Origin: Balamuthia mandrillaris
Taxonomy: Eukaryota
DNA length: 64,000 bases
Direction: 5' to 3'
Assembly (NCBI GenBank): GCA_031835245.2
Contig: JAVKOQ020000071.1
Span: 124,001-188,000 of the forward strand
The translations under genes and the position numbers were made by a program. Under the pieces are notes generated by a model. That model did no database searches and was not told the DNA's origin. It saw only the letters and a program-made list of their open reading frames with translations. Below, one piece after another: positions 9,001 through 31,858 of this stretch. Position 1 is the first letter of the stretch, and each line of letters opens with the position of its first letter.

Positions 9001-12000
9001 TCTTCGTCCTCTTCCAAAAGGCAAATAGACATCAGGCCAGAGAATGTTCATAAGACTTTGGTGAGGGAGTACTTCACCCTGTTGGGAACGTTGAGCAGGT
9101 AAGTGAAATTTCGTTTTTCTGTTTTATTTCCCGAATTACAACACGACCCCTGTGGGTTCCTTCGGAGTTTTCACGGTCCGTGACACCAAATGCTTGGTTG
9201 TCGGGCACCAAGGTCTACATTCGTTCGGAGGCCTGGACCAGCAAGACTTGCACCTGGTGCCTCCATGTGACTCACGAACAGAAGCAACACAACCAGCGTG
9301 AGCGAATCTTCGAGTGCGGACGCAGGGACTGTGGGATACGACTGGATCGAGATATAAATGGAGCTCGCAACATACTCCTTAGGAGCCTCTGTTGCGGCGT
9401 TGCCCGATGGAGCCATATGGGGGCGTGCTGATGGGAAAGTGGATGGGCGCTTCTGTAGCCCTCTAGCCCACCCCATCACCGCGTCTTCGCAAGAACTTTC
9501 ATTTGTGAGTTTACTCACTTGTGTGATTTTTAATCCATCAGCTATCCCGCCGGCAATGACGTGCTGAAGAAGGCCAAAGTTTTTGCTCATCTGGGAGCCT
9601 TGTTGAGTCTTCAGGGTCGCGATGACCTTCCGTTCCTCATTCTTTCCTGTCTAGACTACAACCTGTACTTCCATCTTCTTGCTCCTTGCTCCATTTCATT
9701 CCTCTTATGTTAACTTCTTTCTGCACAGAGCGGGCTATTCCAGAGTGTTGTTGCAAAAGTCTCTTTCCTCGTCCTCCAAAGTGGTTCGATACATGGCCAC
9801 CAGGCATATGCGCGTCCTGTTGAGAGCCGGTGTTGCGAACTTCTCTGCGTGGGGCATAGAGTTCCTTGTCACTCAAGTTATATTTATTCATTCTTCATTC
9901 TGTCCTCCTTTTTCTCCTTGGCTCTCTTCTTGTTCCCGCTTCTCTTTCATCATCCGCATTCTTTTGAGACAAACGAACCAACCTTCTATTCTTTTATCTT
10001 TCTTTGTTGCTATAGCTGGCCGACAGCAACAAGCGAGTCAAGGAGCTGGCGTTAAGCATCCTGGATGAAGCCTGCGACGAGGACGAATGTCTCGAGTCCC
10101 TCATTTCCAAGAAGCCCCGTTCCCTGCTGGATATGGGGGCAGAGGGCAAGTCCCTCGTCCTTCGCTTTCTCTCCAGAGAGCAGGGCCTGCAGGTAAGTGA
10201 AATTTCGTTTTTCTGTTTTATTTCCCGAATTACAACACGACCCCTGTGGGTTCCTTCGGAGTTTTCACGGTCCGTGACACCAAATGCTTGGTTGTCGGGG
10301 CCGTGTGGAAACTATTTAAGCAACCGCTCCGTTCTTTCCAGTCGTATCCCACAGTCCCTACATGTCACAAACCACCACCATTGACGCTACCACTACCATT
10401 ACCCCACGACTCAGAGAACCCACCGAAGATCTGCACTACATCACCCCCACGAAGCTGATCAAACGCTATGGCGTCTCCCTCAGCGGGCTGGCCAAGTGGC
10501 ACACGGAGGGCAAGGTGGCGGCCCTCCGCACCCCAAGCGGGCACCGCCGCTACGCGGCAGAGCACGTTAGAGAGCTTCTTGGCCTCCCCGCCGCGGTCCC
10601 AGAACCCGAGGCCACCGAAAAGATCAAGGCCATCTACTGTCGAGTCTCCAGTCACAGACAACGAGAGCACCTCAAGCATCAAGTTGAGCGTATGCGAGAA
10701 GCCTACCCGAGGCACAAGGTCTACAGCGACATCAGCTCGGGCATCAACTGGAAGCGCAAGGACTTTGTCGCCCTTCTGGAGCGAGTCCTTGCTGGACATG
10801 TCGAGGAGGTTGTGGTTGCCCACCGAGACCGCCTCTGTCGGATCGCCTACAAGCTCATCGAGCACATCTTCCGTAGGTGCGGAACCCGTCTCCTGGTGCA
10901 CCGTCCGGACGACGAGGACGACGATGAGGCTGAACCAAGCAACGTCCTCGCCGAGGACCTCCTCTCCCTCGTTACCGTCTTTGTCTGTAGACACCACGGT
11001 CAAAGATGATATACAGCTGGCCAAGGAGGCAGCTCGAGCACGTCAAAGAGGCCAAGGCAAACCAAAAAGGGCGACAGAGGAGGATCCAAACGACGACGAA
11101 GAGGAGGAGGAAGATCCGACGCTGTTCAAGACGAGAAAGATACGTCTGAGGCCCACCAAGGAACAAGCCCGGATCCTCAACCACTGGTTCGGAGGGGCGA
11201 GGAAAGTCTGGAACACCACTCTTCGAGACTGCAAGACAACGGAGAAAGAAGAAGAGGAGGAAAAGAAGAGGAGTAGAGTGGCGTGGAAGCTGAGTCGGAT
11301 GCAGGGCGTCTGCGTGGTTAAACCTAGAATCATATTCGATTACTTGGAAGACGTCCCCTACTCCATCAAGCACGAGGCGGTAAAGCAGCTCCACGGCAAT
11401 TACCTCACCTGCTGGACGCTCAAGAAGCAGGGTCATATCCGACGCTTCTCCATCAAGTACAAGCGCAAAAAGGACCACCGCACCGAGTCCATCAAGATCC
11501 TTGGACATTACGTCCACTGGTGGAAGGGCTTCATCTACCCCAACGAGCTCCACGTGAACGAGCGTTGGAAAGAAGCCAATGAAACCCGCAAGAGGACACC
11601 CAGACGACGGCGGTTGCCGAATCCCCACGTTAAGCACATAGACCCCATGTTCGACCCTGTAGCGTATGCTTTAGAAGGCCTGGAGTTGGACGACAAGGGC
11701 CGACTGAGACGAACCTGCACACTGCACAAGGACAAGCGTCAACATTTTTGGCTCTGCGTGCCGATCCCGATCCAACATCATGAACGGGCTCCTGATAACC
11801 AAGGGAGCATCGTGGCCTTGGATCCAGGGGTTCGCACCTTTCTGTGTGGATATAGTCCTACCGAGAGAACGGTGAGGGAGTTTGGACGCAACGACTTTGG
11901 TCGCATCTGGCGCCTCGGAAAGCATGCCGACGCCCTGCAGTCCAAAATCGACCGCTCCCCACCGAGCCGCCGCAAGAGAAAACTTCGCGCTCTGCTCAAA

Positions 12001-13813
12001 CTGAGAAAGAGGGTCACCAACCTGGTCGATGACTTTCACCGCAAGACGGCCCTCTTCCTGTGCCGCCGCTACGACCACATCATCATCCCTCCCTTTGGTG
12101 TGAAGGGCATTACGGCCACCCGAGGGAGGCGACGGAGGAAGATCGGCAAAAAGACCGCCAGGATGCTCTATTCCTGGGGACATTACCGATTCCGCCAGTG
12201 GTTGCTGCACAAGGCGAGGGAATGGGGCACCAAGGTCTACATTCGTTCGGAGGCCTGGACCAGCAAGACTTGCACCTGGTGCCTCCATGTGACTCACGAA
12301 CAGAAGCAACACAACCGGCGTGAGCGAATCTTCGAGTGCGGACGCAGGGACTGTGGGATACGACTGGATCGAGATATAAATGGAGCTCGCAACATACTCC
12401 TTAGGAGCCTCTGTTGCGGCGTTGCCCGATGGAGCCATATGGGGGCGTGCTGATGGGAAAGTGGATGGGCGCTTCTGTAGCCCTCTAGCCCACCCCATCA
12501 CCGCGTCTTCGCAAGAACTTTCATTTGTGAGTTTACTCACTTGTGTGATTTTTAATCCATCAGTACCTCCAAGAAACAGGCTTCGTCGACTCGGAGCTGG
12601 AGCTGTGGAGACAAACGGAGAGCCAGAACTATGTCATGGACATCGAGAAAGCCTTGGACCATACCTTTTCGGATGCCAAGCGAGTGGTCTCGCAGGGCCA
12701 GAAGAAAGGAGTGGTGAACCCTCCTCCCCATTTCTATGGAGAACTGGCCAGAACGGAGCCCGGCTGCTCCGTCTTGAGGGAATCCGGTCACATTCCCTCC
12801 ATGGTGCGGCGCCTGCAGAGCGGACAGGGCTCCTCCCTTTCTTCTCGCGCCATTCTTTGGGCATTGGTACTTGTCTTTCTTGCTATGTTGTCGTTTCTTT
12901 CTTACATTCTCATCTTCTTTGTCTGCTCGCATGAACACAAGGGACACATCGGCTCCTCAAAGACAGGGTTGAAGTTGTTGGAGGAGGAAAAGGCGGTAAA
13001 CTTGATGGTGAACCTTGCCGAAACGAGTCCTTGCCTTTCCATTCGTGGGTACGTCATTCACTTTCTACGAAAGCACTCGTTCAGGTTCTTGTGTGTTGTT
13101 AACACTATTGTTTTATTTTTTTAAAAAAACCAGCACGTGTTTCAATATAATGGGCCTTTTGACGAGAACGGAGGAAGGACGAGGCTTGTTGGCCGCTTTG
13201 GGGTGGGAGAGTCCCGCTTCCCTAAAGCCCAACGTTTGTGTGCCTCGCGACCCGCAAGCTAGCGGGTTCTTCAAGGTTTCTTCTCTTCTTCTTCTTCTTG
13301 TTCTTCTTGTTCTTCTTCTTCTTCTTCTACTTCTTCTTTCTTCCCTCTCCTCTGACAACACAACCACAAAAGCTTCAACAGTGCCAGTACCAAGGCTCAT
13401 GGCCACAAACAAACCCCAAAGTCCCTTCTCTCCTTCTCACTTCCAGCCCCCACAAGAGCAAGAACAAAGGACAAGAAGAAGAAGAAGGCGCAACCACCGA
13501 ACGAAGCAACGAGATCCAGGTGGCGGTGGCCAACCTCGTCAACTACATCACCTGCGACAAGGCTCTGGCAAGCTTGGAGCGCATCAAGGCCAACGATACC
13601 GGCGTTCTGAAGGATCCTCGGACGCGCAGCTTCATGCTGAACATGTTGGAGAGCTACAAGTATCGCTTGAAGCTGCGGCGCTTCATCTACAGTTTGATGG
13701 AAGAGGTGGATGAGGAGGGCGGCGGCGGAGGAGGCAAGTGGGATGGCGCCTTTTGTAAGGATTTACCTCCGGCTCAACCGCGTAGATTCACTTGGCTCGC
13801 AGCTAGAAAGTAG
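6071..13813 (+). CDS. RICTOR: Rictor / Pianissimo (TORC2 subunit), multi-exon, carrying two transposon-introns; start codon uncertain
   Basis: Rictor-type motifs: EERVEAFKLARAFI, KATVLLGEILHMSNQLLP, VLTTKDYTRWDWDVI, EYFTLLGTLS, RDDL...LDY, VRYMATRHMRVLLR, LVLRFLS...GLQYL, PPHFYGELARTEPGC, LWAL(G)HIGSS...G, SPCLSIRGTCF. Stop TAG at 13811-13813. Confidence 0.9.
9099..9541 (+). mobile_element. Non-autonomous 443-bp internal-deletion derivative of the IS607/Fanzor element, forming a phase-2 GT-AG intron in Rictor
   Basis: First ~107 bp match 10193ff and last 336 bp match 12228-12563 with one SNP (A9295 vs G12317). Ends are GCAG|GTAAGT ... CCATCAG|. Removal gives LLGTLS-S-YPAGNDVLKKAKVF...RDDLPFLILSCLDY in frame. 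Confidence 0.95.
10337..10359. repeat. Left arm of a perfect 23-bp internal inverted repeat (right arm 12346-12368)
   Basis: TCCAGTCGTATCCCACAGTCCCT is the exact reverse complement of AGGGACTGTGGGATACGACTGGA in the 3' end of the Fanzor CDS. Confidence 0.95.
10362..11009 (+). CDS. tnpA: IS607-family serine recombinase/transposase TnpA
   Basis: N-terminal MerR-like winged HTH (YGVSLSGLAKWHTEGKVAALRTPSGHRRY) ahead of the catalytic domain: AIYCRVSS (catalytic Ser codon about 10647), DISSGINWKR, VVAHRDRLCR, EDLLSLVTVF. HTH-first order is characteristic of IS607. Intronless. Confidence 0.95.
   Translation: MSQTTTIDATTTITPRLREPTEDLHYITPTKLIKRYGVSLSGLAKWHTEGKVAALRTPSGHRRYAAEHVRELLGLPAAVPEPEATEKIKAIYCRVSSHRQREHLKHQVERMREAYPRHKVYSDISSGINWKRKDFVALLERVLAGHVEEVVVAHRDRLCRIAYKLIEHIFRRCGTRLLVHRPDDEDDDEAEPSNVLAEDLLSLVTVFVCRHHGQR
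10468..12453 (+). CDS. tnpB: Fanzor2 / TnpB-like RNA-guided endonuclease; start may be ATG 10468, 10798 or 10924
   Basis: KTRKIRLRPTKEQARILNHWFGGARKVWN (TnpB N-terminal HTH), RuvC-I IVALDPGVRTF, IIIPPF at the canonical RuvC-II position with the relocated Glu in SEAWTSKTC, zinc finger CTWC...CGRRDC, RuvC-III LDRDINGARNI. Uninterrupted ORF. Confidence 0.93.
   Translation: MASPSAGWPSGTRRARWRPSAPQAGTAATRQSTLESFLASPPRSQNPRPPKRSRPSTVESPVTDNESTSSIKLSVCEKPTRGTRSTATSARASTGSARTLSPFWSESLLDMSRRLWLPTETASVGSPTSSSSTSSVGAEPVSWCTVRTTRTTMRLNQATSSPRTSSPSLPSLSVDTTVKDDIQLAKEAARARQRGQGKPKRATEEDPNDDEEEEEDPTLFKTRKIRLRPTKEQARILNHWFGGARKVWNTTLRDCKTTEKEEEEEKKRSRVAWKLSRMQGVCVVKPRIIFDYLEDVPYSIKHEAVKQLHGNYLTCWTLKKQGHIRRFSIKYKRKKDHRTESIKILGHYVHWWKGFIYPNELHVNERWKEANETRKRTPRRRRLPNPHVKHIDPMFDPVAYALEGLELDDKGRLRRTCTLHKDKRQHFWLCVPIPIQHHERAPDNQGSIVALDPGVRTFLCGYSPTERTVREFGRNDFGRIWRLGKHADALQSKIDRSPPSRRKRKLRALLKLRKRVTNLVDDFHRKTALFLCRRYDHIIIPPFGVKGITATRGRRRRKIGKKTARMLYSWGHYRFRQWLLHKAREWGTKVYIRSEAWTSKTCTWCLHVTHEQKQHNRRERIFECGRRDCGIRLDRDINGARNILLRSLCCGVARWSHMGAC
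12400..12583 (+). ncRNA. Predicted omegaRNA: scaffold in the element right end, guide from the flanking Rictor exon (TACCTCCAAGAAACAGGCTT); 5' boundary unknown
   Basis: Position follows known TnpB/Fanzor biology. Visible pairings: TGATGGG 12451-57 with CCCATCA 12494-500; GAAAGT 12457-62 with ACTTTC 12517-22; TCTT-cgc-AAGA; GTGAG-ttta-CTCAC. No expression data. Confidence 0.55.
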
Positions 13814-30117: not shown

Positions 30118-31858
30118 TTCTCCTCTTATTGAATTGTTGGACAATAGTCATTGGATAGAAAAGCATGAGTATGGTATGTTCGCTCTTCCTTTCTGTTATT
30201 TCTCCCTCCTCCAAAAATAGGAAGTTATTCTTAAGTTAGATGGAAAAACCTTATATCTGGATAAACAAAATAGACTTTGAGAATAAAGTTCTTCGAAAGA
30301 GGTTCCTGTGGTTCGCCCAAAACGTTGTAGAGCAGGAAAAGATGAGAGACATGCTTGCCAAAGCATTTGACAAAGCCATCCAAAAACTGAACAGAACCTA
30401 CGACAAATTACAGCTCATTGACGAACTCAACTACATCAAACGACGTCAAGAAACGATTGTTGAGGTATGGTTTATGTTCTTATTATTTTCATTTGTTGGT
30501 TTGTTCCAGAAACAAACAGAAAACTATTGCAGAAACTTAAAACATTCGAAGAAGAGCCACTGTCGAACCCTCGTGAAACCAACGCCCCCAGGCCCATGCT
30601 ACCCAAGAACTTCCAAGCGAGAGAAAGGTTTTTGTTGGACTGGCACCCCACGGAGATTGCTAGGCAGATCACCCTCATCGAATTGTACATTCTTTGTTAT
30701 CTTCTTCATTGCTTCGACTTTCTTTACTCATTCTTTTCTTACGTGGTAAATCAACAACAGTGATTTGTTTCAGCGGATACAACCGAAAGAATTCTTGAAT
30801 CAAAGTTGGAACAAGCAAGGCAGAGAAGACAAGGCGCCTGGTATATGTGCCCTGATAGATAGGTTTAACGAGGTACCCACTCCACTACCTCCACTCATCG
30901 TCATCGTATTGAACTAAAAAGCTCCTTATTTTTGTTGCAGATGAGCATGCTGATGGCAACTTCCATTCTGTTGTTAGAAGATTTGGACGACAGACGAGCA
31001 ATGCTCAAGAAATGGATACTAGTTGCTGAGGTTCATTCTCCCTTTTCTCGAACGAACTTTTCTCGTTTTCAACTGGACTCAACTTTTAATCACAGGAATG
31101 TTTTACTATGAATAACTTTAATGCATTGATGGAAGTCGTGTCGGGGCTGAACGCTCCTTCATTGACAAGGCTGTCTCGAACGTGGGATGCGCTATCCTCA
31201 AAAACTAAAGATAAGTTTCGCGAGCTGACGTTGGTTACCGCCACTGAGAAAAACTTCAAAACCTTGCGAGAGCGTGTGGCTAGCGCTCCTCCTCCAAAGC
31301 TGCCTTATATTGGCACCGCTTTAGCTGACCTCACCTTCATTGAAGAAGGTGCCCTCCTCTTCTTCCTTTCTCACTAGCAACTTTATTGTTAAATATTCAC
31401 ATGCGTGAACAGGCAACCCAGACTACACAGAAGAGGGGCTCATCAACTTTGCAAAGCGGCAGGTAAGTGAAATTTCGTTTTTCTGTTTTATTTCCCGAAT
31501 TACAACACGACCCCTGTGGGTTCCTTCGGAGTTTTCACGGTCCGTGACACCAAATGCTTGGTTGTCGGGGCTGTGTGGAAACTTTCATTTGTGAGTTTAC
31601 TCACTTGTGTGATTTTTAATCCATCAGCTGCTGACAACTGTGATAGTGCACATGCAAACCTACCAACAACAGCGATACAACTACATGGCTGTACCGCCAC
31701 TCAAAACCTACTTGTTGACGCATCCACTGCTGCCAGCCGAAGAATGTTATGAGCGCTCGTTGCGGTTGGAGCCCAGAAGAGTCACTGTACGAGCCAGTGA
31801 AGGCAGAAAATCCAGCGTCAATCGCAAGGGCTCAGTTCAGAATGTTCTTTCCTCGTAA
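28696..31858 (+). CDS. Ras guanine-nucleotide exchange factor (REM + CDC25 domains), carrying a mini transposon-intron
   Basis: AASLTKLVE; FFITCRSFTTP; WHPTEIARQITLIE; IQPKEFLNQSW; MNNFNALMEVVSGL; PYIGTALADLTFIEEGNPD...LINFAKRQ|LL; YERSLRLEPR. Confidence 0.9.
31463..31627 (+). mobile_element. 165-bp miniature non-coding derivative of the IS607/Fanzor element, forming a phase-0 GT-AG intron in RasGEF
   Basis: 121 bp of left end (one SNP vs 10193-10313) joined at AACT microhomology to 44 bp of right end (12520-12563). Ends are GCAG|GTAAGT...CCATCAG|. Removal gives GLINFAKRQ|LLTTVIVHMQTYQQQRY. Confidence 0.95.

Follow-up and report, generated by a model that had tools for sequence, protein, structure and literature searches.

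An IS607-type Fanzor element that resides as a spliceosomal intron in Balamuthia mandrillaris carries a perfect 23-bp inverted repeat that may loop out its coding cargo

How can a 2.4-kb transposon with protein genes of its own sit inside a coding exon of its host? The question is raised by a locus of the amoeba Balamuthia mandrillaris (assembly GCA_031835245.2, contig JAVKOQ020000071.1). The window analyzed is the whole 64,000-nucleotide stretch from position 124,001 to 188,000 of the forward strand of this contig, and all coordinates below are counted from its first letter. It contains a predicted IS607-type element, with a gene for a serine recombinase (tnpA) and one for a Fanzor/TnpB nuclease, in which a 23-nt segment next to the tnpA start codon recurs as its reverse complement toward the end of the Fanzor coding sequence (CDS). 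An earlier reading of the sequence, referred to here as the original prediction, proposed that these two arms pair in the pre-mRNA, loop out the coding cargo and so help the element to be spliced. Autonomous, gene-carrying introners are rare, and how host genes escape damage from them is an open question. If the helix aids splicing, it would show how a 2.4-kb transposon passes as an intron where introns are about 100 nt long. Should it instead connect the transposase leader with the guide RNA, a Fanzor omegaRNA would for the first time be linked to the regulation of its own transposase. In both cases, the repeat offers a compact and mutable 23-bp handle on a nuclease, a transposition system and a splicing event that share one transcript.

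The left arm (10337–10359, TCCAGTCGTATCCCACAGTCCCT) is the perfect reverse complement of the right arm (12346–12368), with 23 of 23 positions matched and 1986 nt between the arms. A search of the window for the 23-mer with up to three mismatches returned three occurrences, namely the left arm, the right arm and a second instance of the right arm at 9324–9346, while the same search with dinucleotide shuffles gave no match in 100 out of 100. In an ungapped scan the pair of arms scored 23, against 13 for the best of 100 shuffles and at most 9 for the left region compared with internal control windows. The complementarity has sharp edges, its flanks being non-complementary, and contains no G–U pairs. 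As read from the sequence, the arm has no dyad symmetry. No sub-motif of the arm was found to recur within the element, and comparison of the outer ends of the element gave no inverted repeat above the level of shuffles. The inverted repeat is not a chance match, in agreement with the original prediction of a perfect 23-bp repeat very unlikely to have arisen by chance. The placement of the arms described there was also confirmed. The left arm stops 2 nt 5′ of the tnpA ATG, which lies at 10362, and the right arm encodes RDCGIRLD beside the RuvC-III aspartate; the following residues are RDINGARN, and the RuvC-III pair R454 and D455 just after the arm is invariant across an alignment of 26 relatives. 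The claim that the short derivatives of the element lack the left arm is true of both (9095–9541 and 31459–31627).

BLAST comparison of the element with the window identified one full-length copy and these two internally deleted ones. All three start with GCAG/GTAAGTG and finish with CCATCAG/, where the slash marks the intron boundary. The GCAG preceding the intron (10189–10192 in the full-length copy) is common to all three; the repeat unit begins at 10189 and the intron proper at 10193. Removal of 10193–12563, 9099–9541 or 31463–31627 leaves a continuous host open reading frame each time, and the full-length element lies in the sense orientation within a coding exon. The sequencing evidence comes entirely from assembled contigs, the depth of which is a poor measure. 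In a contig from run X11, 10189 is joined to 12561 (GT..AG with the cut shifted by +3), and, as indicated by its loose ends, the same contig lacks the neighbouring introns at about 9877–10015 and 12868–12941. Because the flanking introns are also gone, the joined contig is regarded as spliced RNA; together with the continuous reading frame, it upholds the premise of the original prediction that the element is an intron. Raw reads from the RNA runs X19, X20 and X21 were placed in numbers too small to bear on splicing (6, 4 and 0, respectively). Given its intron status, precise removal and multiple copies, the element is therefore an autonomous intron-generating transposon. It has the features of an introner, being multi-copy, having boundaries that coincide with GT..AG in coding exons and being removed from RNA, and many different element flanks were present in runs X7 and X15. 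Contigs that run across the insertion site and lack the element, extending at least 90 nt to either side, were also observed in X7 and X15, which are DNA-like; these may represent an empty allele in other strains and hence a polymorphic insertion.

Between the 5′ splice site and the left arm are 144 nt, and between the right arm and the 3′ splice site 195 nt, which together make 339 nt. The loop enclosed by the arms holds the whole of tnpA plus the Fanzor CDS as far as codon 445 of its TnpB-homologous part. With the intron start set at 10193, an effective intron of 339 nt and a loop of 1986 nt match the values of about 340 nt and about 2 kb originally proposed. Folding of 10189–12563 with ViennaRNA (2375 nt, the intron plus GCAG) placed all 23 arm pairs in the minimum-energy structure, with pair probabilities of 0.935–1.0 and a duplex energy of −47.2 kcal/mol. 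Two further premises hold as well: that the arms are predicted to pair, with a helix probability of about 1, and that the genome has short introns, since those of Balamuthia average 113 nt (preprint 10.1101/2025.02.25.640156, in the part available). The full-length intron is about 21 times as long as this mean. With arms near both splice sites and predicted to pair, the repeat has the geometry of a splice-assisting helix.

In the proposed mechanism, the arms would pair in the host pre-mRNA to form a 23-bp helix, so that the 1986-nt cargo, consisting of tnpA and most of the Fanzor gene, would be looped out and the splice sites would effectively be 339 nt apart instead of 2371 nt. The spliceosome would be helped in joining the element's own GT and AG, and the resulting gain in splicing efficiency or fidelity could make an autonomous, gene-carrying copy tolerable inside genes. 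Most introners in a published survey are non-autonomous, likely as a result of selection against coding introns (PMC12130899, available text). The same helix would also mask the leader before the tnpA AUG in host-derived transcripts, and if transcription of the element itself begins within or close to the left arm, the complete helix would be found chiefly in RNA read through from the host gene.

This loop-out mechanism is ranked first because more of its steps are shown than for any rival, namely the intron status, the precise removal, the short-intron genome and the position of the arms on either side of the cargo. It is plausible and slightly favoured, with a probability of about 0.3. Nevertheless, several observations weigh against it. 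The left arm, separated from the 5′ splice site by 144 nt, is not adjacent to that site, and it abuts the tnpA AUG, which is not needed for splicing. A perfect, sharp-edged match in a family only about 1% diverged is also expected if an inverted duplication was templated recently. For an RNA of 2.4 kb, thermodynamic folding takes no account of folding during transcription or of bound proteins. The 10189–12561 joint is present in X1, X7 and X15 as well (library type unrecorded), where it may be either spliced RNA or an empty site. Finally, among 90 loci from distant relatives (described below), none had a repeat above shuffles at the place homologous to the right arm (codons 446–453), so that the feature is not family-wide.

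Helices of this kind are known from yeast. RPS17B is spliced efficiently only when a segment close to the 5′ splice site pairs with one close to the branch point (PMC2536676). The yeast zipper helices (RPS17B/RP51B) likewise consist of two complementary segments, the first past the 5′ splice site and the second before the branch point or 3′ splice site, and shorten the effective intron (PMC2536676, as far as its available text goes). Unlike them, the helix predicted here encloses two transposon protein genes, is perfect over 23 bp and spans 2 kb, and its function is a prediction. In fungi, introner-like elements exceed ordinary introns in length and are predicted to form stable structures (PMC3609843, excerpt). 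Introners described elsewhere are likewise multi-copy, lie in coding exons and supply GT and AG from their ends (PMC9860276, PMC12130899; excerpts), whereas the element here is autonomous and of the IS607/Fanzor type. The terms "IS607", "TnpB" and "serine" are absent from the available text of PMC12130899, and "intron" is absent from the text of a paper on Fanzor origins (PMC10711439); a search of the papers available found none linking introners to IS607 or Fanzor elements. The IStrons of bacteria, in which a group I intron is combined with an IS607/IS605 element with TnpB, are likewise transposons with tnpA, tnpB and a guide RNA that constitute an intron, with the cargo inside the intron fold. 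Their splicing and guide-RNA formation share a 3′ end and compete: splicing is repressed by the structure of the omegaRNA and by bound TnpB, and one outcome excludes the other (PMC10690162, available text). In contrast to these bacterial self-splicing ribozymes, the present element is spliceosomal, and a single 23-bp long-range helix is seen.

The assignment of the element to its family follows from its predicted proteins: it is an IS607-type pair, with a serine TnpA bearing a MerR-type helix-turn-helix (HTH) and a Fanzor/TnpB on the same strand (Table 1). The tnpA product matches Pfam Resolvase at residues 90–214 (1.8e-15), while matches to MerR at residues 30–64 are below the curated cut-off (21.9 versus 28.2 bits). 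The Fanzor frame matches Cas12f1-like_TNB (2.9e-16) and HTH_OrfB_IS605 (7.2e-12), with OrfB_IS605 just under the cut-off, and 596 Fanzor homologues were found. The closest protein match, P0001, is 99% identical, comes from B. mandrillaris and is annotated as a transposase; a second lineage in the same species (P0002) has a Fanzor that is 74% identical. As expected of IS607, the element is without terminal inverted repeats, and in place of a target-site duplication the short core CAG is found at the left flank and at the element end in 3 of 3 copies; bacterial members have a GG core (PMC6188088, available text).

Table 1. Positions of the element, its genes, the two arms and the deleted copies in the window
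Feature	Position	Strand	Description
Full-length IS607-type element (spliceosomal intron)	10193..12563	+	GTAAGT...CATCAG, 2371 nt
tnpA	10362..11009	+	Predicted serine recombinase, N-terminal MerR-type HTH, 215 aa
Fanzor/TnpB frame	10468..12453	+	661 aa from ATG 10468; TnpB-homologous part from about 11011; overlaps tnpA in the +1 frame
Left arm	10337..10359	+	Non-coding; 2 nt before tnpA ATG; 17–39 nt past TATA-like TATTTAAG (10313–10320)
Right arm	12346..12368	+	Within Fanzor CDS, codes RDCGIRLD; 195–217 nt upstream of the element's last base
Right end	12369..12563	+	Last 85 nt of Fanzor CDS (stop ends at 12453), omegaRNA scaffold (predicted from the family), 3′ splice site
Right-arm copy	9324..9346	+	In short derivative 1, which is without the left arm
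Short derivative 1	9099..9541	+	443-nt intron; left 107 intron nt fused to the element's final 339 nt; right arm kept
Short derivative 2	31463..31627	+	165-nt intron; left 121 nt joined to the last 48 nt; neither arm

The surroundings of the left arm point to a transcript start within the element. A TATA-like TATTTAAG lies at 10313–10320. In X11, which is RNA-like, cover of the element begins at 10352 with a 215-nt contig that has no loose end, and there is none at 10203–10351. In X1, left-end cover is 22–80 versus about 400–2300 in the body, while in the DNA-like runs X7 and X15 it is at least at body level. The TATA-like sequence and this pattern of cover suggest, as a weak contig-based hint, an internal promoter or a transcription start that falls within the left arm or a little upstream of it. 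In X11, the contig depth of the downstream host exons (12561–12867) is 140, versus about 18–21 for the upstream exon (10016–10189) and the spliced joint. Such a step would fit element-initiated transcripts that continue past the right end of the element into host sequence, a requirement for making the guide RNA.

At the other end, the right arm occupies positions −217 to −195 relative to the element's last base. The omegaRNA of a mimivirus Fanzor2 (ApmFz2) is 247 nt long with a scaffold from −205 to 0 (PMC11832414, excerpt), and by analogy the right arm is predicted to lie where the omegaRNA would have its 5′ edge. For TnpB, the omegaRNA is made from the TnpB mRNA by the protein itself (PMC10278001, available text). 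A search of 10100–12700 against Rfam with E-values up to 1 gave no match, and the fold of 12300–12580 taken alone is undistinctive, with a z-score of −0.73. A 7-nt complement was noted between CTGATGG at 12450–12456, in the region of the Fanzor stop, and CCATCAG at 12557–12563, the final 7 nt of the element, which contain the 3′ splice site; by sequence it could be an omegaRNA stem that hides the splice acceptor. A role of the right arm as pseudoknot partner within the omegaRNA was rejected, its 4-bp CUGG/UCAG match being weaker than candidates outside the arm such as this 7-bp one. The arm was likewise dismissed as a target of Fanzor itself, its flank being unlike the CAG beside the element's insertion sites, and a contig start at 12355 was discarded as an RNA end, since it is a graph branch with a loose-end contig.

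In X7 and X15, the depth of the last 115 nt or so of the element (12449–12563) exceeds that of the left end about 8-fold and that of the body 8–40-fold, and many different sequences are joined at 12419, 12459, 12516 and 12525. From the depth of the right end and its many joints, many right-end-only or diverged relatives therefore exist.

The two alternatives offered in the original prediction, repression of tnpA translation and a function at the omegaRNA 5′ end, match the positions of the arms about as well as splicing does. Pairing of the arms could block ribosome loading on the tnpA/Fanzor mRNA and so damp the synthesis of TnpA and Fanzor, either in cis or in trans, through processed omegaRNA or through RNA of derivatives that keep the right arm (9099–9541). 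Such an occlusion of the leader best explains why the left arm abuts the AUG while the right arm lies, by the ApmFz2 analogy, at the expected omegaRNA edge (−217 to −195). The left arm would make up roughly the whole 5′ leader, beginning about 24 nt past the TATA-like TATTTAAG and ending 2 nt short of the AUG, and the RNA-like cover does start at 10352 without a loose end. The leader is predicted to be locally unpaired (mean 0.70–0.84), and the duplex would still reach −40.1 kcal/mol for an RNA start at 10340 and −28.6 kcal/mol for one at 10345. Nevertheless, a start at 10352 itself leaves only 8 pairable nt and −13.5 kcal/mol, and the right arm is partly paired in folds of the omegaRNA alone (mean unpaired probability 0.33–0.57). 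The mechanism hinges on the start site and the omegaRNA 5′ end, both of which are only predicted. In bacteria, RNA-OUT of IS10 pairs with the 5′ end of the transposase mRNA. With its fold-back inhibition, the IS10 system likewise involves complementarity to that 5′ end up to the start codon; it has a dedicated antisense promoter, whereas in the amoeba element only the sequence complementarity is known. We know of no eukaryotic precedent for such leader occlusion, which counts against it, and it is considered rather unlikely. A combined scheme, in which the left arm acts as an "anti-guide", appears unlikely. Here the left arm would capture the guide-RNA 5′ edge in host pre-mRNA, leaving the right end free for the spliceosome and the intron silent; in internally started transcripts, where the arm is missing or short, the omegaRNA would arm Fanzor and its 5′ tail would mask the tnpA leader. 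If true, this switch would be a spliceosomal counterpart of the IStron conflict between intron and guide RNA.

The comparison with distant relatives drew on 80 metagenome and 79 viral loci, all of 25–45% protein identity and silent on conservation within the lineage. Loci were retained if a tnpA match started by residue 45, a tnpB match reached residue 455 and at least 100 nt lay upstream. Sixty of the 80 metagenome loci had a tnpA match and 44 passed the filters, as did 46 of the 79 viral loci, for a total of 90. In each, the tnpA leader (−150 to +20) was compared with the region from −150 to +350 around the codon homologous to the right arm. Four of the 90 (L074, L075, L097 and L101) beat all shuffles, with right arms 157–328 nt downstream of codon 446. 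In L074, L097 and L101 the right arm lies 254–328 nt downstream, in the non-coding right end, and contains runs of 9–10-bp motifs; their left arms lie 25–73 nt upstream of the tnpA start, while that of L075 is inside tnpA at +7 to +19. On the basis of motif content and position, the arms of these three loci are the classical IS607 end repeat. L074, L071, L097 and L101 have subterminal inverted repeats of 10-bp TATCCGTTT-like units and are good examples of classical IS607 ends. The exact 23-mer was not found in the viral contigs.

The subterminal repeats of IS607 likewise link the region upstream of tnpA to the 3′ part of an element that has a MerR-HTH serine TnpA and no terminal inverted repeats. 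The classical right arm, however, is non-coding, near the terminus, imperfect and made of short motifs, while the one here is perfect, within the Fanzor CDS and 195 nt from the end (PMC6188088, in its available part). With a right arm in coding sequence, no recurring sub-motif and 0 of 90 loci carrying a repeat at codons 446–453, the amoeba repeat falls outside the classical subterminal type; by sequence it appears lineage-specific and does not look like a classical array of TnpA sites.

Variation among copies was assessed from the best-supported 40 of 703 differences, and private changes in the arms may lie among the rest. Contigs of a diverged tnpA lineage cross the left arm in three runs (X13, 10254–10540; X15, 10299–10568; X1, from 10303 or earlier to 10443), and the amino-acid changes of this lineage match protein P0121. 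Around the right arm, the best 40 include 8 differences in 12102–12344 and none in 12345–12507. A protein search with the translation of the region upstream of tnpA and its beginning gave one match, again P0121, which starts at the same Met and is uninformative on the arm. A>G changes in X11 were considered as RNA editing and rejected, since those at 10440 and 10443 agree with amino acids of the genomic copy P0001.

These comparisons bear on three explanations in which the RNA helix plays no part. The arms might be a subterminal inverted repeat of the IS607 kind, bound by TnpA as DNA for synapsis or as an operator at the tnpA start. The left arms of L074, L097 and L101 are indeed upstream of tnpA, placed as here. 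Nevertheless, the right arm is inside the CDS instead of 157–328 nt downstream of codon 446 as in the four relatives, the arm has neither a recurring sub-motif nor dyad symmetry, the derivatives are without one or both arms, and no further inverted repeat connects the outer ends beyond chance, all of which makes a pair of DNA sites quite unlikely. The serine recombinase gene between 23-bp inverted sites also recalls Hin and its hix sites, which are 26 bp long, and the 1986-bp cargo could in principle be flipped between the arms to switch expression. Such inversion is highly improbable: the arm lacks the dyad symmetry of invertase sites, and no opposite-strand joint at the arms is present among the joints listed (the intron only in X11, and 15 of 43 in the other runs). 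To our knowledge, IS607 TnpA is a transposase and not an invertase, which also counts against inversion. The last explanation is a neutral relic, in which a template switch during replication or repair placed an inverted copy of 23 nt of the Fanzor CDS in the tnpA leader; these 23 nt would be functionless and still perfect only because the family is young. The exact match, its abrupt ends and the lack of G–U pairs or ragged flanks are what such an event would leave. The left arm would be the derived copy, because the right arm belongs to a normal, conserved stretch of coding sequence. Divergence between copies is about 1% (22 listed differences in X11; P0001 99% identical), so that the perfection of the arms carries little information, and the repeat is absent at the homologous place in the 90 distant relatives. 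Against a relic, the arms fall on functional borders, with the tnpA AUG and TATA-like box on the left and the predicted guide-RNA 5′ edge on the right, and the diverged contigs from three runs share 16 differences in 10373–10536 and none in 10303–10372 among the best 40 of 703. A relic of this kind is a real contender, although a doubtful one.

The two genes of the element overlap, their frames sharing 540 nt, and the Fanzor ATG at 10468 is the second AUG after that of tnpA. It stands in a strong context, with G at both −3 and +4, whereas T occupies both of these positions around the tnpA AUG; by sequence, these contexts and the overlap suggest leaky scanning. In the public annotation, P0001 (672 aa) is a TnpA–Fanzor fusion made through a predicted 73-nt intron (10944–11016), which is unsupported by the listed X11 contigs. 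Perfect palindromes occur toward both ends of the element, TCACGGTCCGTGA at 10265–10277 on the left and GTGAGTTTACTCAC at 12527–12540 on the right. They have GTGA/TCAC half-sites in common and are candidate TnpA or hairpin sites.

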